This document shows, piece by piece, positions 1,573 to 49,086 of a stretch of 64,000 bases of DNA. Position numbers and translations under genes: made by a program. The notes under the pieces were generated by a model. That model was not told the origin of the DNA. It ran no database searches and saw only the letters and a list, made by a program, of their open reading frames with translations. Origin of the DNA: Gammaproteobacteria bacterium (lineage in GTDB: Bacteria > Pseudomonadota > Gammaproteobacteria > JAKBBU01); contig JAJFKN010000055.1 in the NCBI GenBank assembly GCA_021773195.1, positions 65,194 to 129,193 of the forward strand. The letters run 5' to 3'. Each line of letters begins with the position of its first letter. Within the stretch, counting starts at the first letter, position 1.

Positions 1573-4500
1573 ATGCTGGATGCTGATTGGCATGGAAATT
1601 CTGATGAAGAATATCTAGTCGAGTTATTTTCTACGGTCTACAACGATAGTAAAGATCCAGAAGAAATCATAAGGTTATTTTGTCAAATCCCACGATTGTT
1701 CACTAGTAAACGATATCCTTTAAGTAGACGTCCAGATGATGAAGAATATCGCTTTGATAAGAGTTCCCGCGGTTTTCTTATGTTGCATTTGCTAGGGGAA
1801 TTAAAGAAAACCATTACAGACTCTAACTTTGAAGCTCGTTGCCTCGGATTTTTAATTAAAGAAGGGTTGCTTTGGTCAGCAAAAAGCTTATACCTATTTG
1901 ACAGCTTTTCTTTTATCTCAACGTTGAATGGATTAAGTCGTAGCGAATTCACCCATGCATTAACCCACAAAGAGTTTTGGCATTCCTTTACAACCAATGA
2001 TATTTTGCCGTTTTATGGCGTTTTAAGTTCAGATCAATCCATTCTTAATAATGTAGAACGCCGACGCCAATTGATGGAAGCTTTTTTTGCCCAGGACGAT
2101 AGAGCGCGATTGCTCAGGATGAACATTTGGTTCGCTGGTGATAATCATGAAAGTGCTGACTCTATTGTTTTAGACTTTTTAGAGAGGGCATTAAGTGATG
2201 AAGCTATAGCAAGAAAACTGCTAGACCATAATATTGATTGTCAACGGTTGAACTTATTTAAATGCTTTTATGCGCAACCCAGCCGTAATGCTGCGAACCG
2301 TGAGAGAGTTTCAAGACTTGTGGTAATGGTGGCGGAGCGTTATGTGAATACCATAGACATAGATGATTCACTGGTTATTGCCATGAGCCAACATAACCCC
2401 TGCATAGTGCGAGGTGAGGTAGCTAGGCGAGTTTATGTGGTAGAGCGGATAGACCCCGCGCCTAACACAGCTTTTAGAGACCGTTGCACTACCTCACTTG
2501 TTAGTGAGTATCATATTCTGCGATCTTTGGAGTGGAAAGAGTTTGCCCGATATTTCCCTGTTGCAAGAGGGAGGCAATTAGAATATGACCGTGAGATTAT
2601 TGATCATATGACTTCCCAGGTGGTGGAACCTAGTTTTTTCTGCGGTTTTTTTCATGGGAAATTTGATGCTTACAAAGGATATCATGAAAGTAAAATTTCC
2701 CGTCGATCCAAGCCGCCTTTAACCCTAAATTTCTTAGCCGCAGCGTTGCAATGCCCTGAGTTTCAGGCGTATCTGTTTGAGCCAGTTGCAGGCACAGTGG
2801 AAGCTACTTCTCGAGAAAGCTATCGCTTTAAGCAATTTTTAGATCGCATCAAAGATGCAGGGCGAAATTCATCTTCTCCCCTTGTCATGACGCAAAAAGA
2901 GATTGCACTGCGTGCCCAAGCATTTATGATAGCTTTCACTCAAGAAGCATTTTGGACGAGCTATTTTCCTAGCGTTCAATTACCCAGAAGCATTGGTGCT
3001 TATGTAAATTATTTTGCTACGGAACAATGTGCTAAAGCTTTTCTGAATGTGGCTTTGGAAAGAGAAGATTTTTGGATTAACCTATTAGAAAACCACAATT
3101 TATTTGGTTTATTAGACAGTTTACCACGAGAGAGTGTTGAATGTTTTATGGCACATGCTAGCAGGCGACAAGACTTCTTGGCTTATTTGCTGCAGCAACC
3201 TTTAGAAGAGGGGCTAAATGCCATAATGGTGATCTTAGGGGGGGCTAATCAGGGGCATAATGCCCAAGCCGGTTTGTTCGAGGCGTTGATGGCAAGGGCA
3301 GACTTTTGGGAAGTGATTTTTCAAGAAAATCATCTATGCCAATTTATGGATAAATTAAAAGATAAAAATAGAATGGAGTTCTCTCAGTCCACCAAAACAC
3401 AGGAAGGATTCTGGCCGTATATCTTGCAAGAGGGACGCTTGGGTCATTTCATAAGGGGGCTTGAAATGGGAGAAAGGCGAATCGAGCTGCTGGAAGAAGC
3501 AATGACTCAAGATGCTTTCTGGGTTAGCACCTATCGACCCTACAAAATTTCAGGAGAGCTTCGCCATTGGCCCGATGGTAGAAATCCTGGCGAATTGATG
3601 GTGGCACCCATTGCATTTTATCATAGAGATTTTGGTGATAGCACTCATGCTGCGTTCTTACGAGCAGCTGAGCTGCGAGAAGATTACTGGCAGTTTGCTT
3701 TTGCCCATCAGGATTATTTTGTTAAACAGCTTGGTGAAAATTGCAGGGAGTGGGCTGAAGAACAAGCTACTTGGGTCGACCAACTACAAAATATGGACAG
3801 TGTTCCCGTGAGAGTGGTGCGTGAATTGTTGGGAGCACAGGTTATGGAAACCAACAGTGCGCTTTTAAATAGGCAGTTGGGGACTGGTGGGTCCTTTACT
3901 CAGTCTCAAGGTCTGGCGTTGTTTTTATTGGCCTATAATGAAGGTACTTTATTGCAACAGCTAACTAGAGATATCCATATCTTTAATGCTTGGATGCCCC
4001 ATATCCCGGCACCCTACCAGCAGGAAATCTTAGCCCAATTATTAGAAACGGATTTGGAAAATAATTTATCTTATCGCTTGTATGAGATTTTCCAACTACC
4101 TACTCCCAATGATGACGCTTGCGATAAAATAGTTGAAGCTCTAGCCTCAGAGGCTAGATTACCTCAATCATTGCATGAAGATATTGATGCCTATATGGAA
4201 CGCTGTAAAGGTGGCTACCAAGATTATTTGGCCACGCGGAGAAAACAACCAGAGCCAGCTGCTATTGAGGCAGGTGGCAATGCAGTAGAGTTATTGCAGT
4301 TAGTTGCAGAACGTGAACGCCAATCTTTAGCAAGGGAGCAGGAATTGCGTGGCCAACTACAGCAAGCGCAAGTAACCTGTGACCTATTGCGCGGTGAATT
4401 AAGCACAAAAATACAAGCGATTGATGAGTTGCGTGCTGAAAATAAAGGATTGAGAACTGAAGTAGAGAGCTTACATCAATCTGTAAGAGAAGAGCCTGTA

Positions 4501-4713
4501 CCTTCTTTTGTAGAGGGTGGGTCTGTTGACAGTGAGGTTACTGCAATGTCATCAAAGGATGACGTTGATGGCGAAAAGGCCCAACGCTATGCACAATCTC
4601 GAACTGCATCGACTGCCGTAGCACAACGTAATATACAGCGCCATCAACGTCAGCGTGATGGACTTGATATCCTTGGTAAAAATACAAAAGACATGCCTTG
4701 CGTCTTACTTTAA
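1573..4713 (+). CDS. Large hypothetical protein (1046 aa) with a degenerate internal '(E/D)xFW' repeat and a C-terminal coiled coil. Candidate secreted effector.
   Basis: Long ORF. Recurring motifs QEAFWTSYF, REDFWINLLENH, RADFWEVIFQENH, EGFWPYILQEGR, DAFWVSTY and EDYWQFAF lie in nt ~2940-3720. There is a heptad-like Q/E/R/L-rich segment near the C-terminus (nt ~4290-4500). I recognise no enzymatic motif. Confidence 0.6.
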   Translation: MLDADWHGNSDEEYLVELFSTVYNDSKDPEEIIRLFCQIPRLFTSKRYPLSRRPDDEEYRFDKSSRGFLMLHLLGELKKTITDSNFEARCLGFLIKEGLLWSAKSLYLFDSFSFISTLNGLSRSEFTHALTHKEFWHSFTTNDILPFYGVLSSDQSILNNVERRRQLMEAFFAQDDRARLLRMNIWFAGDNHESADSIVLDFLERALSDEAIARKLLDHNIDCQRLNLFKCFYAQPSRNAANRERVSRLVVMVAERYVNTIDIDDSLVIAMSQHNPCIVRGEVARRVYVVERIDPAPNTAFRDRCTTSLVSEYHILRSLEWKEFARYFPVARGRQLEYDREIIDHMTSQVVEPSFFCGFFHGKFDAYKGYHESKISRRSKPPLTLNFLAAALQCPEFQAYLFEPVAGTVEATSRESYRFKQFLDRIKDAGRNSSSPLVMTQKEIALRAQAFMIAFTQEAFWTSYFPSVQLPRSIGAYVNYFATEQCAKAFLNVALEREDFWINLLENHNLFGLLDSLPRESVECFMAHASRRQDFLAYLLQQPLEEGLNAIMVILGGANQGHNAQAGLFEALMARADFWEVIFQENHLCQFMDKLKDKNRMEFSQSTKTQEGFWPYILQEGRLGHFIRGLEMGERRIELLEEAMTQDAFWVSTYRPYKISGELRHWPDGRNPGELMVAPIAFYHRDFGDSTHAAFLRAAELREDYWQFAFAHQDYFVKQLGENCREWAEEQATWVDQLQNMDSVPVRVVRELLGAQVMETNSALLNRQLGTGGSFTQSQGLALFLLAYNEGTLLQQLTRDIHIFNAWMPHIPAPYQQEILAQLLETDLENNLSYRLYEIFQLPTPNDDACDKIVEALASEARLPQSLHEDIDAYMERCKGGYQDYLATRRKQPEPAAIEAGGNAVELLQLVAERERQSLAREQELRGQLQQAQVTCDLLRGELSTKIQAIDELRAENKGLRTEVESLHQSVREEPVPSFVEGGSVDSEVTAMSSKDDVDGEKAQRYAQSRTASTAVAQRNIQRHQRQRDGLDILGKNTKDMPCVLL

Positions 4714-4909: not shown

Positions 4910-5974
4910 ATGGCTTTAATCACCATGCGACAATTATTAGACCATGCGGCAGAACACGGCTACGGCGTTCCTGCTTTCAATGTGAATAACTTAGAACAGA
5001 TGCGTGCCATTATGGAAGCCGCTGATGAAACAAATAGCCCTGTGATTGTGCAAGCTTCCGCAGGTGCTCGTTCTTATGCGGGCCCTAACTTTTTGCGCCA
5101 TTTGATTTTAGCTGCGGCGGAAGAGTTTCCTCATATCCCCGTGTGCATGCATCAAGATCACGGTGCTTCCCCTGATGTATGCCAACGTTCCATTCAACTA
5201 GGATTCACCTCGGTAATGATGGATGGTTCCTTGGAAGCTGATATGAAAACCCCTGCTTCCTATGAATATAATGTGGATGTGACACAACGTACCGTTGCTA
5301 TGGCTCATGCTTGTGGTGTTTCTGTTGAAGGTGAATTGGGTTGTCTAGGTTCCTTAGAAACAGGCGAAATGGGTGAAGAAGATGGCCATGGTGCTGAAGG
5401 TGTCTTGAGTAAAGACATGTTACTCACGGATCCTGAACAAGCGGCACAGTTTGTGAAAGAAACGAAAGTAGATGCTTTGGCTATTGCCATTGGTACCAGC
5501 CACGGCGCTTATAAATTTAGTCGCCCTCCCACCGGTGATATTTTAGCTATCGATAGAATCCGCGCTATTCATGAACGTATTCCCGATACTCACTTAGTCA
5601 TGCACGGTTCGTCTTCTGTGCCCCAAGATTGGTTAGCGACTATCAATGAATTTGGCGGTGATATGAAAGAAACCTACGGTGTCCCCGTAGAAGAAATTCA
5701 AGAAGGCATCAAACATGGCGTGCGGAAGATCAATATTGATACGGATTTACGTTTAGCATCTACAGGTGCTATTCGTCGTTATATGGCAGAGAATCCTTCT
5801 CAATTTGATCCACGTAAATATTTGGGCATATCCAAAGATGCTATGAAGAGTATTTGTTTAGCTCGTTATGAAGCTTTCGGTACGGCAGGCCAAGCGTCTA
5901 AAATCAAAGTGGAATCCACAGAAGTGATGTACCAACGTTACTTGGATGGTGAACTTGATCCGCGAGTCAACTAG
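4910..5974 (+). CDS. fba: Fructose-bisphosphate aldolase, class II
   Basis: Translation [30 protein letters not shown]... is typical of the class II FBA N-terminus, and its length of 354 aa matches class IIB (CbbA/FbaA type). Confidence 0.9.
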
Positions 5975-5989
5975 GACTCATTCGCTAAA

Positions 5990-6018
5990 AAGCCTCCAGT
6001 CGGGGGCTTTTTTATATC
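5990..6018 (+). terminator. Rho-independent terminator after fba
   Basis: AGCCTCC-AGTC-GGGGGCT forms a 7-bp stem with one G·U pair, followed by TTTTTTAT. Confidence 0.6.
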
Positions 6019-6139
6019 CCAAGATCCTTATATAAATCATTCAAATTATCAAATTGCTCCACATTTTTACCTCGCTCGCTGTCGGATAATGTTTTCCTTG
6101 TGGTTTCATTGGGAATTTAGATAAGAAATAGCATATAAC

Positions 6140-6625
6140 TTAACTCTTACGGCGGGAAGGGCCCTCCGTAGTAAAGTGGTAAGGCACGATGATATTACCT
6201 GAAGGTAGAGTTACCGTGACAAATACTAGCCAATTATGGGTGGGGTTGGGGCAAAGGGGTAAGGTGATTATGCCGCGGTAGGACCATTTGGATTGGGCCT
6301 GTAAATCTTCTGCTACATGGCATGTGGGAATATGCACATTGAGCATTTTTACATGCACGGATTGAGGTTGCATACCTTGCAAATCCACGTCCACGGTTAA
6401 AGGTATTTGCAGGGGGATGGCGCGAGGTGTGATACTGAAGGTTACGCTGCCTTGATTTCTAATTGCTACGGTGCAAGCATGTTCATGCAAATCGCACTCT
6501 TTACGATTTTGGTGACTTAAACGGTAGTTAGTGTACATATGATAACCAGAGATGAATAGAATAAAAATCCCTAAGAGTATTCCTAGGGTTAATAGTGTTT
6601 TTTGATCATCATTAAACCGTGACAT
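6140..6625 (-). CDS. Hypothetical membrane-anchored protein (161 aa)
   Basis: It has an N-terminal hydrophobic helix (LLTLGILLGIFILFISGY). No recognisable domain. Confidence 0.45.
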   Translation of the reverse strand: MSRFNDDQKTLLTLGILLGIFILFISGYHMYTNYRLSHQNRKECDLHEHACTVAIRNQGSVTFSITPRAIPLQIPLTVDVDLQGMQPQSVHVKMLNVHIPTCHVAEDLQAQSKWSYRGIITLPLCPNPTHNWLVFVTVTLPSGNIIVPYHFTTEGPSRRKS

Positions 6626-6669
6626 GATATAATTCCGCCTCTTTTTCCTAAACTGAATAGTAGCAAATC

Positions 6670-9600
6670 ATGGCTGAATTATCTGCTCATAAAGCGCGAG
6701 AAATTCCCTACAATTATACTTCTCTTACTGACGAAGGCATTGTATGGCGGTTTTTGGGTCGTGAGGCCTGGTTTTTAATAGAACAGTTGCGTGAAAAACG
6801 CAAAACAGGCCGCTCAGCGCGTATGTTATTTGAAGTCCTCGGCGATATGTGGGTAGTGAAGCGCAACCCCTATATCCAGGATGATTTAATATCTCATCCT
6901 AAACGTTGGCAGTCTTTGGTCCACGCTTTGAATCATCGATTGAATCAAGTGGCTCAGCGTAATAGTGAGCAAGATGCAACGGTTACGGATTTGGTGGATA
7001 AAGCCAAACAAGCCGTAAAAACATTCGTTCAGGAACAAGAAGCGCAGAAACACTTTAGACCCAAGGTCTTAAGGGCATTGAATCTGTGGACGAGAAAAGA
7101 AAACATTTGTTTTGATGGATTATCTCGTGTCTCCCATGTTACTGACGCCAGCGATTGGCGGGTAGAGTATCCTTTTGTCGTGATTAAACCCGACAATGAA
7201 AGTGAATTGGCTGATCTGGTGAAAGCTTGCATCCAATTGGATTTAACCATTATCCCTCGAGGCGGAGGCACAGGTTATACGGGTGGTGTCGTACCGCTGC
7301 ACGCTGACACAGCTGTGATTAATTTAGAAAAACTAGAAAAACTCAGCGCTATATCCTATAAAATTTTGCCTGGGTTGCAAGAACCTGTGGCGACGGTTCG
7401 TGCAGAAGCCGGTGTCGTAACGCGACGGGTTTCTGACTTGGCGCAGCAATCCCAATTGGTTTTTGCCGTGGATCCCACATCACAAGATGCTTGTACCATC
7501 GGTGGCAATGTAGCCATGAATGCCGGTGGTAAAAAAGCCGTATTGTGGGGGACGACATTGGATAACTTAGCTTCTTGGCGCATGGTAACGCCGAAGGGTG
7601 AGTGGATGACCGTGGAGCGAGTGAATCATAATTTAGATAAAATTCATTTGCAGGACATGGCACAATTTCGAGTCCAACGTTTTGAAAGCGACGGCAAGAC
7701 CCCTATTGGCGCAGAAGAAAAGATTAATTTGCCGGGACGAGCCTGCCGTAAAATTGGCTTAGGTAAAGATGTAACTAATAAATGGCTGGGTGGATTGCCT
7801 GGTGTGCAAAAGGAAGGGTGTGATGGGTTAATTACCTCAGCCGAATTTATTTTACATGAAAAGCCTCAGCATTATCGTACAGTTTGTTTGGAATTCTTTG
7901 GTACGGACATCAAGCAGTCTGTTGCAGCTATTGTGGAGATCACGCAATTTTTTGCAAAACAAACTAAATTGAAATTAGCTGGTCTGGAGCATTTAGATCA
8001 ACGGTATTTAAAAGCCGTAAAATACAATACCAAAGCGGCTCGCATGCAAAGGCCAAAAATGGTCTTGATTGGTGATATCGCCGGTAGTAATGACGCCTTA
8101 GTGGAACAGGCCGCAGCTACCGTAGTGCGTATTGCTAATGAACGACAGGGTGAAGGGTTTATTGCCCAAAGTCCGCAAGCGCGTACTAATTTTTGGAAAG
8201 ACCGTAGCAAAACCGCTGCCATTGCTGCGCATACAAATGCGTTTAAAATAAATGAAGATGTGGTGATACCTCTCGATAAATTAGCGGAATACAATGAGGG
8301 TATTGAGCATATTAATATCGAAGAATCCTTAAAAAATAAAATTTTACTCTTAAAACATATTCTTACTTATCTTCATGAATGCAGAGAGGATTTGCCATGG
8401 GATGATATGGATGAAACTCAAAGGGAGCAGTTTAATGAAAAACAACAACTAGCTAAAAAACAGCTGTCCAACGTGTTAAATCAGTGGCAAGTCTATGCGA
8501 CGAATTTAGATGAATTAGCTATGATGCACTCGCAAGTTTTATCCAGAGAGATGCAAGCTAGCATGCAGCCAGAGGATAGCTTTTTTAATATCATTCAACG
8601 ACGAGACTTAGTGATTTCCTATGGTAAGGAAGTAAAAACCCCATTAGCCGAATTGTTCTCCGGCGATACATACCAAGCCTTATTAGATAATTTTGATAAG
8701 TTACATAAAAAATTATTAGCTAAACGTTTGTTCATTGCAACCCATATGCATGCGGGCGATGGTAACGTACATACTAACATTCCTGTGTTCTCCAATGACC
8801 ATGAGATGATGGCGGATGCTGATAAGATTGTTCATCGTGTTATGGCTTTGGCAAAAAAACTTGGGGGGGTGGTTTCCGGTGAGCATGGTATTGGCTTAAC
8901 GAAAATGGCTTTCATTCCCGAAGAGCGTATTGATGCTTTTATGGTGTATAAAGAAACTGTAGACCCCAAAGGGCATTTTAATCGGGGAAAATTAATCAAA
9001 GGCTCTGGTCTAGAACGAGCTTATACGCCTTCGTTGCGCTTACTGGAGCAGGAAGCTTTAATTCTTGAAGCTACAGATTTAGAATCTCTCAATAATGATA
9101 TCAAAGATTGTTTGCGTTGTGGAAAATGCAAGCCTGTTTGCACTACCCATATCCCGAGAGCCAATTTATTTTATTCGCCTCGTGATAAGATTCTTGCAAC
9201 GGGGTTAATTACAGAAGCCATACTCTATGAAGAACAAACCCGGCGCGGTATTTCCACTCAACATTTTATGGAAATGAATGACATTTCAGATCACTGCACA
9301 GTCTGTCATAAATGTGCGAATCCCTGTCCTGTAAATATCGATTTTGGTGATGTTAGTATAAAAATGCGTGAGATTTTAAAGGTAAAAAGAAAGCGCTCCT
9401 TTAATCTCGGCAATTATATGGCTATGAAGTTTTTGACAGTGACGGATCCTGCTGTAATCAATGTGATGCGAAAAGTGGTTTTGGAGTGGGGTTTCAAGCT
9501 GCAGCGCAAGTTGTATTTTTCCAACAAAGCTAAAATAGCCATTGAAGAATCCGCACCAAAGCCCACCACGGTGAAAGCACCTATTCAGGAACAGGTCATA

Positions 9601-10515
9601 CATTTCATCAAAAAACCTATGCCTGCTCATTTGCCCAAACGACCCATGCGTTCGCTACTAGGGCTAGAAGACCCCAAGTTAGTACCTATATTAAGAGACC
9701 CTAAAAAGGTAAATGAAAGCAGTGATGCAGTGTTTTATTTTCCCGGTTGTGGGTCAGAGCGCATGTTTAGCCAAATTGGTTTAGCGACTTTAACCATGTT
9801 GCATCATGTGGGCACACAAACCGTGTTGCCGCCAGGCTATCTTTGTTGTGGTTATCCACAACGTTCCAGCGGAGATCAAGATACCAGTAAAAAAATCACA
9901 ACGGATAATCGCGTCTTATTTCACCGTGTGGCTAATACACTGAATTACTTAGATATTAAGACGGTCATCGTTTCTTGTGGTACTTGCATGGACCAGTTAG
10001 AGGATTACCAATTTCATAAAATTTTCCCCGGCTGTCGTTTGCTGGATATCCATGAATACTTGATGGAAAAAAATATCACGGTGAACGATGTAGATGGTGT
10101 GCAGTACATGTATCATGATCCTTGCCACAGTCCCATGAAAACCCATCAACCTTTACAGGTAGCGGAAAAACTTATGGGGCAATCGGTTACTCTATCGGAT
10201 CGCTGTTGTGGAGATGCAGGCACGCTGTCTACAGCTCGCCCTGACATTGCAACACAATTGCGGTTTAAAAAAGAAGAAGTGATTAAGCAAGACTTATGGC
10301 GGTTAACTGGCAAGCCTAAGGCCGATGAGGGTAAGGTGAAAATGCTAACGTCCTGCCCTGCTTGCGTCAAAGGCTTAGCCAGTTATGCTGAAGACACGGG
10401 GATTGATACCACATACATTGTGGTAGAGTTAGCTCAGAAATACCTCGGGGACGGGTGGCAAGATCAGTTCGTGCAAGCTATTCAGCATGATGGTGTGGAG
10501 AGGGTATTATTGTAG
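6670..10515 (+). CDS. Fused FAD-linked oxidase / Fe-S oxidoreductase (GlcD-GlcF-like, YdiJ-type), 1281 aa
   Basis: An N-terminal FAD-binding PCMH-type region (PRGGGTGYTGG) and a C-terminal cysteine-rich region with CxxCxxC/CP motifs (CLRCGKCKPVC; CTVCHKCANPCP) are followed by CCG-like domains. Confidence 0.8.
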   Translation: MAELSAHKAREIPYNYTSLTDEGIVWRFLGREAWFLIEQLREKRKTGRSARMLFEVLGDMWVVKRNPYIQDDLISHPKRWQSLVHALNHRLNQVAQRNSEQDATVTDLVDKAKQAVKTFVQEQEAQKHFRPKVLRALNLWTRKENICFDGLSRVSHVTDASDWRVEYPFVVIKPDNESELADLVKACIQLDLTIIPRGGGTGYTGGVVPLHADTAVINLEKLEKLSAISYKILPGLQEPVATVRAEAGVVTRRVSDLAQQSQLVFAVDPTSQDACTIGGNVAMNAGGKKAVLWGTTLDNLASWRMVTPKGEWMTVERVNHNLDKIHLQDMAQFRVQRFESDGKTPIGAEEKINLPGRACRKIGLGKDVTNKWLGGLPGVQKEGCDGLITSAEFILHEKPQHYRTVCLEFFGTDIKQSVAAIVEITQFFAKQTKLKLAGLEHLDQRYLKAVKYNTKAARMQRPKMVLIGDIAGSNDALVEQAAATVVRIANERQGEGFIAQSPQARTNFWKDRSKTAAIAAHTNAFKINEDVVIPLDKLAEYNEGIEHINIEESLKNKILLLKHILTYLHECREDLPWDDMDETQREQFNEKQQLAKKQLSNVLNQWQVYATNLDELAMMHSQVLSREMQASMQPEDSFFNIIQRRDLVISYGKEVKTPLAELFSGDTYQALLDNFDKLHKKLLAKRLFIATHMHAGDGNVHTNIPVFSNDHEMMADADKIVHRVMALAKKLGGVVSGEHGIGLTKMAFIPEERIDAFMVYKETVDPKGHFNRGKLIKGSGLERAYTPSLRLLEQEALILEATDLESLNNDIKDCLRCGKCKPVCTTHIPRANLFYSPRDKILATGLITEAILYEEQTRRGISTQHFMEMNDISDHCTVCHKCANPCPVNIDFGDVSIKMREILKVKRKRSFNLGNYMAMKFLTVTDPAVINVMRKVVLEWGFKLQRKLYFSNKAKIAIEESAPKPTTVKAPIQEQVIHFIKKPMPAHLPKRPMRSLLGLEDPKLVPILRDPKKVNESSDAVFYFPGCGSERMFSQIGLATLTMLHHVGTQTVLPPGYLCCGYPQRSSGDQDTSKKITTDNRVLFHRVANTLNYLDIKTVIVSCGTCMDQLEDYQFHKIFPGCRLLDIHEYLMEKNITVNDVDGVQYMYHDPCHSPMKTHQPLQVAEKLMGQSVTLSDRCCGDAGTLSTARPDIATQLRFKKEEVIKQDLWRLTGKPKADEGKVKMLTSCPACVKGLASYAEDTGIDTTYIVVELAQKYLGDGWQDQFVQAIQHDGVERVLL

Positions 10516-12580: not shown

Positions 12581-13096
12581 ATGAAAAAATACATATTAAT
12601 GATTGCGGGACTATGTTTTGCTTTCTTAGGGCTTTCTGCCTATGCCAGTGGGGGGAATGCTTGCAGCGGAACCTATATTAAAATTCTCAATGCTACGTCA
12701 AAAAATATTGGTAATTTCAAATGTGAGGGCAAGGATTATACCTGCACCTTCACAAAGAATACCGTATCACCTGATCCAGATAACTCTGTTGTCGTAGGTA
12801 GCATGCGCAGTCGAGATGGTAGTTCAGACGTGTATACCTTAAAAGGGAAGGTGATATTCGAAGTAAAAGATGGTGGTGGAGAGCATAAGAATACCTTGAT
12901 AACAGGGAAATTCCGTACTAAAGCAAAGAGTCTTTCTTTTAATAGTGGGTGTACGACTCATGCCGATGATGGGACGCCCAAGATTGAATATGACGATGGT
13001 TCAACAAAGAAATATAAAGTTAAACCCTCTGACAAAAACGGTAAGAAGTCGAAGCCTGGATACATTAAGTATAAAGTCGAGGATGCAACGCCTTAA
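12581..13096 (+). CDS. Secreted hypothetical protein, paralog 1 (171 aa, signal peptide)
   Basis: It has a signal peptide (MKKYILMIAGLCFAFLGLSAYA). It shares conserved blocks with the next gene: YASGGNACSGT, DYTCTFTK, VSPDPDNSVVVGSMRSRDGSS, CTTHAD and GYIKYKV. Confidence 0.65.
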   Translation: MKKYILMIAGLCFAFLGLSAYASGGNACSGTYIKILNATSKNIGNFKCEGKDYTCTFTKNTVSPDPDNSVVVGSMRSRDGSSDVYTLKGKVIFEVKDGGGEHKNTLITGKFRTKAKSLSFNSGCTTHADDGTPKIEYDDGSTKKYKVKPSDKNGKKSKPGYIKYKVEDATP

Positions 13097-13331: not shown

Positions 13332-13847
13332 ATGAAAAAATATGTTAAAGCCCTAGTAGGCTTGTGTTTTGTTGTGCCTGGGATTTATGCCTATGCCAGT
13401 GGGGGGAATGCTTGTTCCGGAACGGAAATTAAAATTCTCAACGACACGCCCTATAATATCGGTGATTTTAAGTGTGACACGGATGATTATACCTGTACCT
13501 TTACAAAATCTTATGTGTCGCCTGATCCTGATAACTCTGTGGTGGTGGGTAGCATGCGCAGTCGTGATGGCAGTTCAAAGGTGCGTACTCTGAGTGGCAA
13601 AGTGAAGTTCCAAATAAGGGACGGTGGTGACCAAAATACCCTGGTTACGGCTAAATTCGAAACGATTGCCGGTGCTCTCGCAGGTCCTGCGGCGTGCACG
13701 ACCCATGCTGATGAGGATAAGGACGGGCCCAAGATTGAACACGAAGGTTCAAAGAAATATAAGGTGAAAACCGACGACAAGAATAAAAAAGCCTACAGTT
13801 CAAAAGTAGGCTACATCAAGTATAAGGTCTACGATAAGACGGCTTAG
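13332..13847 (+). CDS. Secreted hypothetical protein, paralog 2 (171 aa, signal peptide)
   Basis: This is a tandem paralog of 12581..13096 with the same length and conserved Cys positions, plus stretches of near-identical nucleotide sequence. Confidence 0.65.
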   Translation: MKKYVKALVGLCFVVPGIYAYASGGNACSGTEIKILNDTPYNIGDFKCDTDDYTCTFTKSYVSPDPDNSVVVGSMRSRDGSSKVRTLSGKVKFQIRDGGDQNTLVTAKFETIAGALAGPAACTTHADEDKDGPKIEHEGSKKYKVKTDDKNKKAYSSKVGYIKYKVYDKTA

Positions 13848-40893: not shown

Positions 40894-41808
40894 TTAAATA
40901 TCAATATCCTGAATATTTAATTCTAGGGTCTCATGCTTGCGTTCAGCGGATATCAAGGTGTATTCAGGGATCTCAATCCAAGAAGTGGTGTCCTCTGTGA
41001 GAGGTTCCGAAGCGATAATGATACTAGAATTATTATCGGTGTAAGTCATACGATAATCACCGTCAGTGGATTCGTAGCATTCACCTCGAGTAAACCAAAG
41101 CGTATGATAGGCATAATGTTCTTCACCATAGCCTTCAGGATAATAACCATAATCAAATACAAAACGCGTAGAAATAATAAAGTCGGGTGCGGTAATAAAG
41201 AGATTAATGGGAGAAACCACTTTAATACCTTTTTGCTTGCGGATTTTAGCTAGGACTTCTAAAGTGTCGATCACACCTTTTGATACGCAGGCTGCATTCC
41301 ATTGATCGCGTTGCTTAGGTAATTGGGAGAGTAGCAGGGCATAGATCCATTCAGAATCTGTCGTACCACCCATCTGAGTTGCATAGACGGGGTCAATCAA
41401 CTCATAAAGATCGCGCTTCATTTTGTTAATATCCGTCAGTTGACCATTATGTGCCATGGCCAAATGTGTATCATGATAAATAAAAGGATGCGCATTTTGT
41501 GGGATGACTACTTCGTTGAGACTGTAGATGGTGCCACGAACATGAGCTAATGCACTATTGGCTTTGATTTTTTTGGAAAGGCTACCTAAGTTATGATCGT
41601 AAAAAGGCAATTGCATGGTTTTGTAGAGGAGTGGCAACTCGGGGTTAGCCGAGCCAGAATTCCATGCGGACAAACCAAATCCAGCTAGGTTTTGAATGGT
41701 ACTCATCAACTTAGGATTGTAAGATTGTTTCACCAATGAGTTGTCGGGGCTAAATAAGAGATGATCTACCAAGAGCGGTTGGCCTAAATACAATAATGCT
41801 CTACACAT
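40894..41808 (-). CDS. Class II (Ntn) glutamine amidotransferase, EgtC-like / GATase_6 family
   Basis: It has the N-terminal nucleophile Cys right after Met: MCRALLYLGQPLLVDHLLFSPDNSLVKQSYNPK. Compare the EgtC-type MCRH.A.LG.P..L.DL.L.P...L..QSY.P. Confidence 0.7.
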   Translation of the reverse strand: MCRALLYLGQPLLVDHLLFSPDNSLVKQSYNPKLMSTIQNLAGFGLSAWNSGSANPELPLLYKTMQLPFYDHNLGSLSKKIKANSALAHVRGTIYSLNEVVIPQNAHPFIYHDTHLAMAHNGQLTDINKMKRDLYELIDPVYATQMGGTTDSEWIYALLLSQLPKQRDQWNAACVSKGVIDTLEVLAKIRKQKGIKVVSPINLFITAPDFIISTRFVFDYGYYPEGYGEEHYAYHTLWFTRGECYESTDGDYRMTYTDNNSSIIIASEPLTEDTTSWIEIPEYTLISAERKHETLELNIQDIDI

Positions 41809-42817
41809 TGTAGTCCCCTTCGTGATGATGTATTTGTTTGCCTAAGCCTTCCAATTGTATATATTGTCGATTTACTTTTCGTAGCATATGAGCCACAGCC
41901 GAAAAAACTAGATTATGACATTTAAACCATAATATGACACTTTCTTTTTTTATGGCATCGAGGGCTTGGTGATCAATTTCCAAAATAACAGCATCCTCAC
42001 GTGCCATGGTACTGGTGGAATGGGGTTGTTTATCGGTAAAGCCGGTATGGCCAAAAATTTCGCCAGGCCCATATACACCAAGCTTAGATATTCGCTTGGG
42101 TAAGTGTAATGTGGCCAGTACCGCACCGAGTACCACCATGAAGAAACTGTCACTTTGCTCACCTTCTAAATAAATTGGACGACCCTTTTTTACTTTATGT
42201 AATCTACAGTGAGCCATCAAAATTCCAAGCTCGTTCGCTGATAATTCTTGGATGAACTTCAGGCGATTAAGGTATTTTTTTATATCGTCATCAATCTCAG
42301 TAATATGTTTTTTCCCTAACATTTTTAATGGCGCTAATATATTTGGTAGCGAGACATCTTGTGTATCCTCGGCATCATCCATAACGATTTTTGAAATTCC
42401 GCGTATACGCTGACACATTCTCTTGGCTATTTGCATGCTCAGTTTGTAGCTAATGTGGGGGTGGGTTAATTGAAATGTATGGATGTAGCTATTACTGAAG
42501 CAATAGGTTTTTAATGGCGTTAAGGTGCGAATGTCCGCTGTAATGGGGGCATGTTCCATAAAAGCGATTTCGCCAATGAGATCAGGGGCAGAACACGTGG
42601 TCAAATGTAAACGCTTATTGCCATAAAGGCGCACGGTAGCTTCTACTTCGCCTTCAATTAATAAGTAGATACCAGAGCTGGGCTTGCCTTGTAATAGAAT
42701 ATATTGGTCTTCTGGGAATTCCACAGGTTGAAGGTATTTTGCAATCTTAGATATTTCCTGTTGGCTCATGGATGAAAAAGTAGGTATTTTAGCGATGTCA
42801 TTTATTCGATCATTCAT
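41801..42817 (-). CDS. Protein with two tandem cyclic-nucleotide-binding (CAP_ED) domains and no obvious DNA-binding domain
   Basis: It has two beta-barrel cNMP-binding cores (…YILLQGKPSSGIYLLIEGEVE…IGEIAFM…; …IYLEGEQSDSFFMVVLGAV…GPGEIFGHTGF…). Confidence 0.7.
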   Translation of the reverse strand: MNDRINDIAKIPTFSSMSQQEISKIAKYLQPVEFPEDQYILLQGKPSSGIYLLIEGEVEATVRLYGNKRLHLTTCSAPDLIGEIAFMEHAPITADIRTLTPLKTYCFSNSYIHTFQLTHPHISYKLSMQIAKRMCQRIRGISKIVMDDAEDTQDVSLPNILAPLKMLGKKHITEIDDDIKKYLNRLKFIQELSANELGILMAHCRLHKVKKGRPIYLEGEQSDSFFMVVLGAVLATLHLPKRISKLGVYGPGEIFGHTGFTDKQPHSTSTMAREDAVILEIDHQALDAIKKESVILWFKCHNLVFSAVAHMLRKVNRQYIQLEGLGKQIHHHEGDYNV

Positions 42818-42863
42818 TGCTTACTTTCCTTATATTACTTCGTTTGCCTACACATTCCACTGC

Positions 42864-44291
42864 CTACACATTCCACGTATGCACGGGCATATCGTTGGCT
42901 TGGTTTTTTATATAAGCTTTAATGAGCTTATGGAAATCATGGTCGTGGTTGGCAAAAAATTCACGTTGCCATTGACTACCAGTTTTCCCTGAAATAGCTC
43001 GTTCTTTTATGACAGATAAATATAGCTTAATATCATCCTCATCCACACCTAATGATTGCAAACCTTTCTCTGCCGCCGGCACTAGGGTTTCAGCAATTAA
43101 TTGTCTTAGCGGCACTTGCTTTCCCTCGAGCCAGAAAACGTTACTAGCTAAGCCATGTCGTGCTGCTGTATAAAAATTTTCACTGACCTTGTCAAAAGGT
43201 AATTTACATTCTTGGACCAAGGGATCATCTACCAAGCCATGCATTAGTCCGATAAAAAAAGCGATATTAGCCACCATGTCGATAATAGAGGTGCCTCCAG
43301 GCAAGACACGTAATTCTACTCTAAAATGTGGTTCATTATTTTCATCAAAACCAATAACCGGCCGTATCCAGCGCCAGAGGGTACCGTTATGCAAACGCAT
43401 ATGCCATAGAGTATTTGATTCTTCGGAGTGGCATTCGGGTATAACAATCGGGTATTTCAAATTGTCCTGGAAGACACCCAACAGAGAGTTATCGATGTAG
43501 CGCTCATTAAAGAAAACTCGAGGTGAGTCGCTCTGGGGGAATTTATTGCCAGCATTAACTAAACGTTCAAACAAGGGGATTCGGGTTTCGTCCCATAACT
43601 GTTGATCCAATAGAAAAGCAGAATTGGCTCCAATGGCTGTAATGGGTGCTGCAATGATACAAGCGAGATTATAAAAGTGGTGTGTTTTTTCGATGGGTAA
43701 ACGAATATGCATGTGAAAAGCGCTGGTTGCTCCCATGAGGGCAATGGAGTTTGTTTCAATCTCTAATTTATTAACAGGGCCATTAATATTAAAGCGAATG
43801 GCTTTGTTATGACGTAATCCAGCCAGTTGCTTTTCTAAGGCATAATAGCGATGTTCAGGGGTTATTTTATCATTGTCATACTCATGCAGAGTGCCGATAG
43901 GTTGTGAGCCAATACAAAAGGGAATAACTTCTAATTTTTTACCTGTTTCTATGGCTTTATCCCAAAGCTTAGACAGATCGTTTTGCATGGTTTTGAGGAG
44001 GCTAGGAGAAGCATCATAATAGGGGGTGTTGATTTCTAAAGCGCAGGTGCCCACCTCTGTGTTATAGGCATCGTCTCTGATGGTTTCAATAAAGGCTACA
44101 TTTTTGTGAGCGGGCTGGAAGTCATGGTCCAGCATTAAGAATTCTATTTCCATGCCGAATTGTGGTTTGTAATGGGAAAACTTACCTTGTTTTATCCAAT
44201 CTTGACAACGAGCAGTATCTGCTTCGAGCAGATGTTTAAAGCTGATGTACGCCTCATCATCGAAGTTGGTGCTCTCAATTTTTTGACCCAT
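42864..44291 (-). CDS. GCS2-family carboxylate-amine ligase (glutamate--cysteine-ligase-like; YbdK/EgtA-type)
   Basis: It has the GCS2 N-terminal signature FGMEIEFLMLD (cf. G.E.EF.LVD), and its 475-aa length fits the family. Confidence 0.7.
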   Translation of the reverse strand: MGQKIESTNFDDEAYISFKHLLEADTARCQDWIKQGKFSHYKPQFGMEIEFLMLDHDFQPAHKNVAFIETIRDDAYNTEVGTCALEINTPYYDASPSLLKTMQNDLSKLWDKAIETGKKLEVIPFCIGSQPIGTLHEYDNDKITPEHRYYALEKQLAGLRHNKAIRFNINGPVNKLEIETNSIALMGATSAFHMHIRLPIEKTHHFYNLACIIAAPITAIGANSAFLLDQQLWDETRIPLFERLVNAGNKFPQSDSPRVFFNERYIDNSLLGVFQDNLKYPIVIPECHSEESNTLWHMRLHNGTLWRWIRPVIGFDENNEPHFRVELRVLPGGTSIIDMVANIAFFIGLMHGLVDDPLVQECKLPFDKVSENFYTAARHGLASNVFWLEGKQVPLRQLIAETLVPAAEKGLQSLGVDEDDIKLYLSVIKERAISGKTGSQWQREFFANHDHDFHKLIKAYIKNQANDMPVHTWNV

Positions 44292-48525: not shown

Positions 48526-49086
48526 TTAAAGTTTTGCCAGTACTCTAGCGATGCCTTCCAAGGTAAGTACGTGGTCTACGGCTTTGGTTTTTATGGCGGC
48601 TTGGGGCATTTCTGCTGACTCTGCTGTTTTAGGATCTTGAACCATAGTTAAGCCCCCGAGCTTTTTAATTTTTTCTATGCCTTGACTGCCATCGGAGTTT
48701 GCGCCCGTTAAGATAATGCCAACCACTCCACTTTGAAAAACATCGGCGGCTGATTCAAATAAAACATCAATAGAGGGGCGCGAGTAATTGATTCGTTCAT
48801 CCACAGAAAGTGACATTTTATCGGGAGATTCGATGAGAAGGTGATAATTAGCAGGAGCAACATAAATATTTCCTGGCTCGATAGCTGCTTTGTCTTCCGC
48901 TTCTACCACGTTTAAAGGGGTTACTTTATTAAGTAAGTAAAGCAGTGTTTCATCAGAATCAGGATGGCGATGTTGAACGATAAAAACGGGCCGTTTCAAG
49001 GGTTTTGGCAGTTTCGATAATAGGGTAGTCAGTGCCGTTAGCCCACCTTGTGAGGTGCCAATGACGATAGCATCATAATGTCGCAT
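48526..49086 (-). CDS. Stand-alone CheB-type methylesterase catalytic domain (186 aa, no receiver domain)
   Basis: [16 protein letters not shown]...[17 protein letters not shown]... is the CheB_methylest fold with Ser/His/Asp triad context. There is no REC domain, and no other che genes are in the window. Confidence 0.7.

Follow-up and report, generated by a model that had tools for sequence, protein, structure and literature searches.

Organization of the locus

The DNA analysed here (the window) is a stretch of 64,000 nucleotides (nt) from the gammaproteobacterial contig JAJFKN010000055.1, positions 65,194 to 129,193. It carries a compact group of three genes: one for a carboxylate-amine ligase, one for a protein made of two cyclic-nucleotide-binding (CNB) folds and one for an N-terminal-nucleophile (Ntn) hydrolase. 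An earlier note, made from the sequence, had placed a three-gene module at 40894-44291, and three minus-strand open reading frames (ORFs) fill exactly that interval. In their order on the minus strand, with the junction of the last two as read from the sequence, these are:

42864-44291, minus strand: ligase gene (LIG475), 475 amino acids (aa); carboxylate-amine ligase with the glutamate-cysteine ligase (GCL)/YbdK fold
41801-42817, minus strand: CNB gene, 338 aa; two cyclic nucleoside monophosphate (cNMP)-binding-fold domains; proposed ligand-sensing partner of the hydrolase
41801-41808, minus strand: 8-nt overlap of the CNB stop with the hydrolase start, ATGTGTAG
40894-41808, minus strand: hydrolase gene, 304 aa; stand-alone Ntn protein, class II glutamine-amidotransferase-like (GATase_4), EgtC-like

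Many homologues exist for each of the three products, and these ORFs are thus genes rather than chance readings. Each start is preceded by a purine run resembling a Shine-Dalgarno sequence. The ligase and CNB genes are separated by a 46-nt spacer, while the CNB and hydrolase genes share 8 nt, an arrangement typically seen with translational coupling. Scans for promoter- and terminator-like sites found none inside the intergenic gaps and had a yield no higher than that of shuffled sequence; co-transcription of the three genes is therefore plausible from their spacing only. Rfam revealed no riboswitch or leader either in this region of the window or in eight related loci. At the first of the junctions there is a perfect 16-nt tandem duplication (window 42845-42876, TGCCTACACATTCCAC twice on the plus strand) that spans the ligase stop codon, such that the final four codons of the ligase and its stop recur in the spacer before the CNB gene.

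The flanks are those that had been named previously: trpE, trpG, trpD and trpC upstream (by their NCBIfam matches) and speD downstream (TIGR03331, 467 bits). The latter is of the E. coli type and lies on the same strand, 84 nt beyond the hydrolase gene. With a GC content of 40-41% for the module and 42-44% for its flanks, there is no clear compositional sign of a recent acquisition. In a cluster look-up, all five of the proteins checked were singletons.

A CNB-hydrolase pair conserved in distant lineages

To place this locus among its relatives, we have employed a scan with the hydrolase, limited to one genome per species, which gave 397 relatives; 80 of their loci were retrieved and surveyed by ORF calling and phmmer. 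About 76 of these 80 loci have a gene for a tandem-CNB protein beside that of the hydrolase, and this adjacency is found in three arrangements:

Legionellales-like, 50 of 54 loci: CNB then hydrolase, gap of about 0-16 nt (mode 6)
Actinomycetota (Gaiellaceae, Solirubrobacterales, Thermoleophilia), 21 of 23 loci: hydrolase then CNB, genes overlapping
Burkholderiales, 3 of 3 loci: CNB and hydrolase genes on opposite strands

Since the linkage survives rearrangement of the two genes across such distant lineages, there is strong evidence that the CNB protein and the hydrolase are a functional couple. This is a point that the earlier note had missed: the conserved unit is not the three-gene module but the pair, and the ligase is interchangeable between the YbdK and the 475-aa types. 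Most of the exceptions to the adjacency fall at the end of a contig or have a CNB gene with a frameshift. The latter is the case in Legionella tunisiensis (L041, 6963-7995), where the split of the CNB gene into two ORFs could reflect a true frameshift, decay to a pseudogene or faulty assembly. No CNB-hydrolase fusion protein was seen in the best 150 representatives. The two partners evolve at very different rates: across lineages, identity to the window protein is 43-53% for the hydrolase and only 15-26% for the CNB protein. Legionella species, Aquicella and metagenome-assembled genomes (MAGs) of Coxiellaceae have homologues of the hydrolase with about 50% identity.

A ligase gene lies directly upstream of the pair in about 40 of the 54 Legionellales-like loci. 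In 37 of them it belongs to the YbdK family and immediately precedes the CNB gene, the loci concerned including L. pneumophila subsp. fraseri, L. anisa and L. bozemanae; the Legionella protein is a true YbdK-family member (NF010040, 522 bits against a cut-off of 425; PF04107, 192 bits). In the window, in locus L056, in a Tatlockia MAG (L081) and in a metagenomic locus (L091), the same slot is occupied instead by a ligase of the 475-aa type, and in L023 such a gene is found about 4.7 kb from the hydrolase gene. A profile alignment (hhalign) of the 475-aa and the Legionella YbdK-type ligases gave a probability of 95% and an E-value of 3.8e-8 at 19% identity; hence two remotely related ligase families fill one and the same position. 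About a quarter of the Legionellales-like loci, and all of the actinobacterial ones, have the CNB-hydrolase pair with no adjacent ligase.

In a neighbour-joining tree of the hydrolases the loci group by lineage. The hydrolases linked to a 475-aa ligase (L056 with L081, L023 and the window) form a basal grade of the gammaproteobacterial clade, and the YbdK-linked hydrolases form its crown. By this basal position the window represents a variant that branched off early within a module passed on by vertical descent. Around the Legionellales-like loci there are housekeeping genes and no signature of mobile elements. A scan of metagenomes for nearer relatives of the module produced two loci only, at 46-49% identity: L091, which has the complete ligase-CNB-hydrolase arrangement with the 475-aa ligase, and L092, where (at 5856-7933) a YbdK gene is followed directly by the hydrolase gene, without a CNB gene.

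Several other genes recur in these neighbourhoods. Of the 23 actinobacterial loci, 15 have a gene for an L-cysteine desulfhydrase of the Cds1 type (NF052478, 618 bits, cut-off 600) beside the hydrolase-CNB pair; these are among loci L060-L087, for example at 6489-7733 of L070 and 8-1126 of L087. In about ten loci of a single Legionella subclade, a pair of genes for an M20 peptidase and a GNAT acetyltransferase is found, divergently oriented, just upstream of ybdK (at about 3.8-5.7 kb in each of L010, L014, L020, L021, L026, L028, L030, L034 and L038). This M20/GNAT pair and the outer-membrane, ferritin-like, pilin-like and alpha/beta-hydrolase neighbours are all clade-specific, and we judge them to be probably unrelated to the module.

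The hydrolase is EgtC-like but not EgtC

The 304-aa protein is a class II (Ntn) amidohydrolase. It scores 43.7 bits against PF13230 (GATase_4; cut-off 23), has the Ntn alpha-beta-beta-alpha fold and carries the expected Cys nucleophile, the Asn-Gly of the oxyanion hole and the Arg and Asp of the glutamyl site. It had been described as having an EgtC-like amidotransferase N-terminus, which is borne out both by its MCR start and by the fact that EgtC (TIGR03442) is its best NCBIfam match, aligned over the full length. However, the score against that model is 118.8 bits, with a cut-off of 218.65. The protein is thus EgtC-like rather than an EgtC equivalog.

Sequence comparisons with the Protein Data Bank (PDB) gave SPO2029 (3mdn, 8e-14) and EgtC (4zfj, 3e-4). 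A structural model of moderate confidence (pLDDT 73.6) matched the same two proteins in Foldseek (EgtC 4zfk, E 4.5e-14; SPO2029 3mdn, TM-score 0.82), with PA 1te5 and then PurF and GlmS further down the ranking. Across the three lineages there are 72 near-invariant positions, among them C2, R91, N121-G122 and D151, which correspond to the glutamine/gamma-glutamyl site of the PurF-type domains.

With the EgtC of Mycolicibacterium smegmatis (4zfj/4zfk/4zfl) it shares a stand-alone Ntn class II amidotransferase fold, an MCR...LG start with a Cys nucleophile, and the Arg, Asn-Gly and Asp residues of the glutamyl site. The window protein is nevertheless only 16-18% identical to EgtC, some 70 residues longer (304 against about 235) and at about half of the family cut-off, and in place of an egtA/B/D/E context it has a tandem-CNB partner.

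The middle protein has lost the cNMP-binding signature

The CNB protein matches PF00027 in two stretches (98.8 bits) and no other domain, in agreement with the tandem cNMP-binding domains without a helix-turn-helix (HTH) that had been reported for it. Its sequence matches in the PDB include the CNB domains of Mycobacterium CRP, of protein kinase G (PKG) and of the RI-alpha subunit of protein kinase A (PKA). The C-terminal HTH of the Crp/Fnr transcription factors is lacking: the CRP model covers only residues 19-148, and a second CNB domain sits where the HTH would be. As in PKA there are two CNB domains in tandem, but there is no N-terminal extension (the first domain starts at about residue 8) and no kinase partner.

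In the canonical CNB domain the cyclic phosphate is bound through the Arg of a cassette of the form G-E-x-[AG]...R-[ST]-A-[ST], and the Glu binds the ribose. In the window protein, cassette A, GEIAFMEHAPITAD (GEIAFMEHAP-I-TAD), has an Ile in place of the phosphate-binding Arg; cassette B, FGHTGFTDKQPHSTS (FG-H-TGFTDKQP-H-STS), has His both for the Glu and for the Arg. A homologue search with this protein returned only itself at E<=1e-5, for which reason its orthologues were collected from the loci by phmmer. Among 77 of them the phosphate-binding Arg is present in just five in domain A and two in domain B. In the Legionellales-like proteins the domain A position is a Cys (22 cases) or a Ser (18), and domain B is fully degenerate.

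Thus the protein matches PF00027 but has not kept the phosphate-binding cassette of a functional cAMP/cGMP-binding domain. Because the key Arg is lost from both cassettes (and is absent from 72 of the 77 orthologues in A and 75 in B), the ligand that is sensed is probably not cAMP or cGMP; the proposal that the module is cNMP-regulated is not supported, control by a cNMP being unlikely on this sequence evidence and another ligand more likely. A few orthologues of the Gaiellaceae type do retain a canonical R[TA]AT cassette, which suggests that a cNMP site was ancestral. At one of the roughly 80 loci, that of Aquicella siphonis (L005, 4468-6741), the gene immediately before the CNB-hydrolase pair, on its upstream side, encodes a GAF-GAF-PAS-guanylate/adenylate cyclase.

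The 475-residue ligase is a separate family

By sequence the ligase is difficult to place. Its Pfam and NCBIfam matches are weak (NF010043, 40 bits; PF03074, 20.6 bits), it scores 27-40 bits against the NCBIfam YbdK and GCL models, whose cut-offs exceed 370, and a match to PF04107 that is on record as precomputed was absent from our own hmmscan. For the YbdK family itself (NF010040/TIGR02050) the score is 26.7 bits against NF010040, with a cut-off of 425. A sequence search of the PDB gave nothing meaningful (best E 0.1), and we have consequently turned to structure prediction. The AlphaFold model, computed with a 60-sequence alignment, is of high confidence (pLDDT 92.6, pTM 0.94), and its top Foldseek match in the PDB is YbdK (1r8g, E 6e-15, TM-score 0.82). 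This is followed by plant GCL (2gwc), yeast GCL (3ig5) and E. coli GshA, with PafA and the glutamine synthetases far lower (TM-scores of 0.6-0.8 for the GCLs and about 0.3 for glutamine synthetase).

The GhExE motif is present as G46-M-E48-I-E50 and is invariant in the 60 sequences, as are E79, E86, H195, R310, R324, E326 and R328. The protein therefore has what characterizes the GCL/GCS2 superfamily, namely the glutamine synthetase (GS)-type fold, the GhExE motif and the metal- and ATP-binding Glu, His and Arg residues, and its invariant residues fit an active ATP/Mg-dependent carboxylate-amine ligase. The previous description as a GCS2 ligase holds at the level of the superfamily; both the YbdK and the EgtA cut-offs are missed. 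Judged from sequence, the 475-aa ligases are a separate family remotely related to YbdK; the closest homologue of the window protein other than itself is 38% identical. It shares with YbdK the fold, the motif and the Glu/His/Arg catalytic set, and belongs to the superfamily of the GCLs 2gwc, 3ig5 and 1v4g, yet it has only 13-14% identity with YbdK and the GCLs, is about 100 residues longer than YbdK and lies below every NCBIfam cut-off.

The family extends beyond the lineages discussed above, to Sulfurifustis, Sulfurirhabdus, Acidiferrobacteraceae and others, and there, unlike YbdK, it is normally coupled to an AstE/AspA-like hydrolase. In five of five such outside loci sampled, a 475-aa-type ligase gene is followed by one for an AstE/AspA-like hydrolase of 340-349 aa with an intact HGNE (zinc) motif, and some members are fused to this hydrolase in proteins of about 825 aa. 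Examples are:

L002, 8001-10465: ligase and AstE/AspA-like hydrolase
L004, 8001-10444: ligase and AstE/AspA-like hydrolase
L088, 4797-7273: ligase and AstE/AspA-like hydrolase
L089 and L090: ligase and AstE/AspA-like hydrolase
Proteins P0065, P0084 and P0104: ligase and AstE/AspA-like hydrolase

This combination looks like a second uncharacterised ligase/hydrolase pair. Two families of ligases and two of hydrolases thus recombine as ligase/amide-hydrolase pairs.

A putative switchable gamma-glutamyl cycle

Tentatively, and with somewhat less than even confidence, we interpret the locus as a compact and probably co-transcribed module that builds and breaks a single gamma-glutamyl amide under the gating of the CNB protein. 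In such a scheme the ligase, with ATP and Mg2+, would activate a carboxylate and join it to an amine, as its fold and its conserved metal- and phosphate-binding residues suggest. The carboxylate would be the gamma-carboxylate of glutamate, as in every characterised relative of the ligase, and the best guess for the amine is cysteine. The hydrolase, after removal of Met1, would present its Cys as an N-terminal nucleophile like that of EgtC, and its conserved Cys/Arg/Asn-Gly/Asp set points to cleavage of the gamma-glutamyl amide into glutamate and the amine. The tandem CNB-fold protein, given an adjacency that outlasts changes in gene order, may be a ligand-sensing partner that times this hydrolysis, and its gating would stop the ligase and hydrolase from running an ATP-wasting futile cycle. 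In effect, the module would store or buffer an amine, or a thiol such as cysteine, in a way that can be switched. The suggestion in the earlier note of a gamma-glutamyl ligation/hydrolysis cycle instead of ergothioneine synthesis is thus, in its general form, still the best reading.

As the substrate we favour cysteine, or an amine that contains it, although less firmly than the cycle itself. Three things speak for it: the Glu-Cys activity of YbdK, the desulfhydrase gene beside the actinobacterial pairs and the substrates of EgtC and Dug3. Gamma-glutamyl:cysteine ligation is the sole activity reported for YbdK (Lehmann 2004, cited in PMC2588565). EgtC and the yeast/fungal Dug3 both act on substrates that contain gamma-Glu-Cys (PMC12653102), and for a CNB-fold sensor that binds a gamma-glutamyl thiol there is a precedent in PrfA with glutathione (PMC5359189). 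Touching on a thiol-sensing role is the frequent occurrence of a Cys at the lost Arg position in the Legionella CNB orthologues. Legionella requires exogenous cysteine, and this would give a cysteine buffer its rationale. One could go further and picture the CNB protein as an allosteric subunit that can dissociate from its metabolic Ntn amidohydrolase, the two resembling in a bacterium the regulatory and catalytic subunits of PKA. Its CNB fold would have been turned from cyclic nucleotides to the sensing of a thiol or gamma-glutamyl metabolite and, with a ligase of the YbdK or the 475-aa type, the couple would run a gamma-glutamyl-cysteine reservoir for buffering cysteine; in this fully specified form the proposal is doubtful.

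A number of points weigh against the switchable cycle. Its substrate, complex, ligand and regulation are what we infer from the observed gene anatomy, folds, residue conservation and gene linkage. The pair is often found with no ligase beside it, so the substrate of the hydrolase need not come from this ligase. The rapid evolution of the CNB protein would be unusual for an obligate subunit, and no fusion to the hydrolase occurs in the representatives scanned. The few canonical R[TA]AT orthologues and the Aquicella cyclase leave room for cNMP sensing in the family. Finally, the in vitro Glu-Cys activity of YbdK, a long-orphan enzyme, is weak, and the case for co-transcription is one of gene spacing.

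Alternative explanations

One alternative is that gamma-glutamate serves, in biosynthesis or catabolism, to protect an amine for a time, following the EgtA-to-EgtC logic or that of Puu/Ipu-type amine catabolism. The amine, for example a polyamine, would be tagged by the ligase, altered by enzymes whose genes are elsewhere and finally freed of its tag by the hydrolase. Ergothioneine provides a known case of a ligase working with a gamma-glutamyl hydrolase, and another carboxylate-amine ligase family adjoins GAT-like thiol peptidases (PMC2588565). A polyamine would also have suited the position of speD close downstream and on the same strand. However, among more than 80 loci speD is beside the module nowhere but in the window, and we have rejected the suggested speD/polyamine link. 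Moreover, the neighbourhoods have no conserved modifying enzyme, the enzyme families are not those of PuuA (GS-like) or PuuD (a class I amidotransferase), and in dozens of genomes the three genes stand as a complete unit of their own. On balance we find this explanation rather improbable. Alternatively, the locus could encode a heteromeric glutamine-dependent amidotransferase, in which the Ntn protein hydrolyses glutamine and passes the ammonia to a GS-fold ligase that amidates a carboxylate; the CNB protein would regulate these two enzymes or form a bridge between them. The hydrolase does keep the full PurF-type glutamine-site set (Cys2, Arg91, Asn121-Gly122, Asp151), the GS-fold ligases include ammonia-using enzymes (glutamine synthetases are among the Foldseek matches) and the genes are tightly packed. 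Yet the hydrolase-CNB pair is retained without a ligase in the Actinomycetota and in about 25% of the Legionellales-like loci; the nearest structures to the hydrolase (EgtC, SPO2029, PA 1te5) are stand-alone hydrolases that rank ahead of PurF and GlmS; the 475-aa ligases elsewhere go with an AstE/AspA-like hydrolase, which is no ammonia donor; and the best folds for the ligase are the amino-acid-joining GCLs, well above glutamine synthetase. Such an enzyme is improbable.

The earlier note had considered the module to be the EgtA/EgtC half of the ergothioneine pathway, and if egtB, egtD and egtE were elsewhere in the genome it would be one part of a split pathway, with the ligase as EgtA and the hydrolase as EgtC. 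EgtC is indeed the best match of the hydrolase both in NCBIfam and by Foldseek E-value, and the ligase has the GCL fold. Still, the hydrolase falls well under the EgtC cut-off, and the window ligase has no match to the EgtA model TIGR03444 (cut-off 370.8 bits) at E<=0.01; even the Legionella YbdK-type ligase reaches only 29.8 bits against it. No proteins with the FGE-sulfatase/DinB_2 or Methyltransf_33 domains of EgtB- and EgtD-type enzymes were found either in the window, as had been stated, or in the neighbourhoods of the sampled relatives. In addition, the hydrolase family is defined by a CNB partner that egt clusters are not known to have, and the actinobacteria, the home of those clusters, have the pair beside Cds1 and not beside egt genes. 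A split ergothioneine pathway is, accordingly, very improbable. Least credible of all is a Pycsar/CBASS-type defence or signalling module, with the CNB protein activating an effector enzyme in response to a cyclic nucleotide. It would draw on the PADLOC matches of the CNB domains to PycTIR and a Pycsar effector (53 bits) and on the cyclase gene directly upstream of the pair in Aquicella. These PADLOC matches, though, are to the generic CNB domain only, and neither the ligase nor the hydrolase has one; the cassette Arg is lost; the hydrolase tree follows lineage; the Legionellales-like loci have housekeeping surroundings free of mobile-element signatures; and the cyclase is a neighbour at that single locus, with none in the window module. 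The defence reading was consequently rejected.

Relation to known systems

Although the individual folds are familiar, the conserved architecture is uncharacterised: in the literature searched no characterised system joins a CNB-fold protein to an Ntn gamma-glutamyl hydrolase. Searches for such a pair, or for this operon in Legionella, found nothing relevant, and NCBIfam contains no model whose cut-off is passed by either protein of the pair. Another likeness for the hydrolase proposed here is the yeast/fungal Dug3 (PMC12653102), also of the stand-alone class II amidotransferase type, which acts on the gamma-glutamyl bond in a peptide containing Cys and has a non-catalytic or regulatory partner. 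In this glutathione-degrading Dug2-Dug3 complex, however, that partner is a WD40-M20 peptidase protein rather than a CNB protein and Dug3 is eukaryotic, the comparison being one of descriptions.

With respect to the CNB protein, it shares with the PKA regulatory subunit the tandem CNB-A/CNB-B layout without a DNA-binding domain, and the CNB domains of PKA RI-alpha, PKG, Mycobacterium tuberculosis Pat (Rv0998) and Bd1971 (CNB-EAL) are all among its sequence matches. In PKA, Pat and Bd1971, as in our proposal, a CNB module controls an enzyme; here the enzyme would be a separate Ntn hydrolase, for which the literature searched holds no precedent. The window protein also differs from these in that both of its cassettes are without the Arg and cassette B without the Glu, and no dimerisation/docking or inhibitor segment was identified in it.

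The coupling of an ATP-dependent amide ligase to a hydrolase of the same bond is known from glutathionylspermidine synthetase/amidase, where product levels are governed through control of the hydrolase. Iyer et al. (2008) described a 'new CAL' ligase family beside GAT-like thiol peptidases and proposed synthesis of glutathione-like peptides (PMC2588565). The window module is unlike both of these in its enzyme families and in having a dedicated sensor between the genes. In most Legionella it is YbdK orthologues that hold the position of the window ligase in the operon. If our proposal is correct, it would supply a physiological context, and the first such role, for the YbdK family, whose structure is solved and whose role is orphan. 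CNB-fold sensors would gain a new type of output, and their fold a class of ligands other than cNMPs; a regulated cysteine/gamma-glutamyl node would also come to light in intracellular pathogens that depend on their host for cysteine. The CNB-hydrolase pairing is conserved in the Legionellales (L. pneumophila and many other Legionella), in Thermoleophilia-type Actinomycetota and in Burkholderiales; should the mechanism be wrong, the linkage data would still mark out a compact family of orphans open to inexpensive biochemical tests.

Other features of the window

The rest of the window has a number of effector- or eukaryote-like genes, which encode HipA, a Fic protein, a 685-aa protein with a tyrosine-phosphatase domain and a 688-aa ankyrin-repeat protein, together with two very large ORFs of 1046 aa (no significant Pfam match) and 1206 aa. 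The coordinates of these genes and ORFs are 57006-59072, 22393-24450, 24714-25949, 8-1243, 1573-4713 and 60105-63725. The effector-like genes suggest an intracellular lifestyle and fit a Legionellales-like bacterium. The remaining features of some interest are:

6670-10515: 1281-aa fusion protein, DUF3683 with FAD-linked oxidase, 4Fe-4S, CCG and DUF3400 domains
12581-13096 and 13332-13847: tandem paralogues of 171 aa each, 64% identical, with a signal-peptide-like N-terminus
27464-28375: YhgA-like (Transposase_31) gene
48526-49086, just upstream of trpE: 186-aa ORF matching only the C-terminal catalytic half of the CheB methylesterase

The CheB-like ORF scores 152-154 bits, well under the cut-offs, and is a stand-alone protein without a receiver domain.

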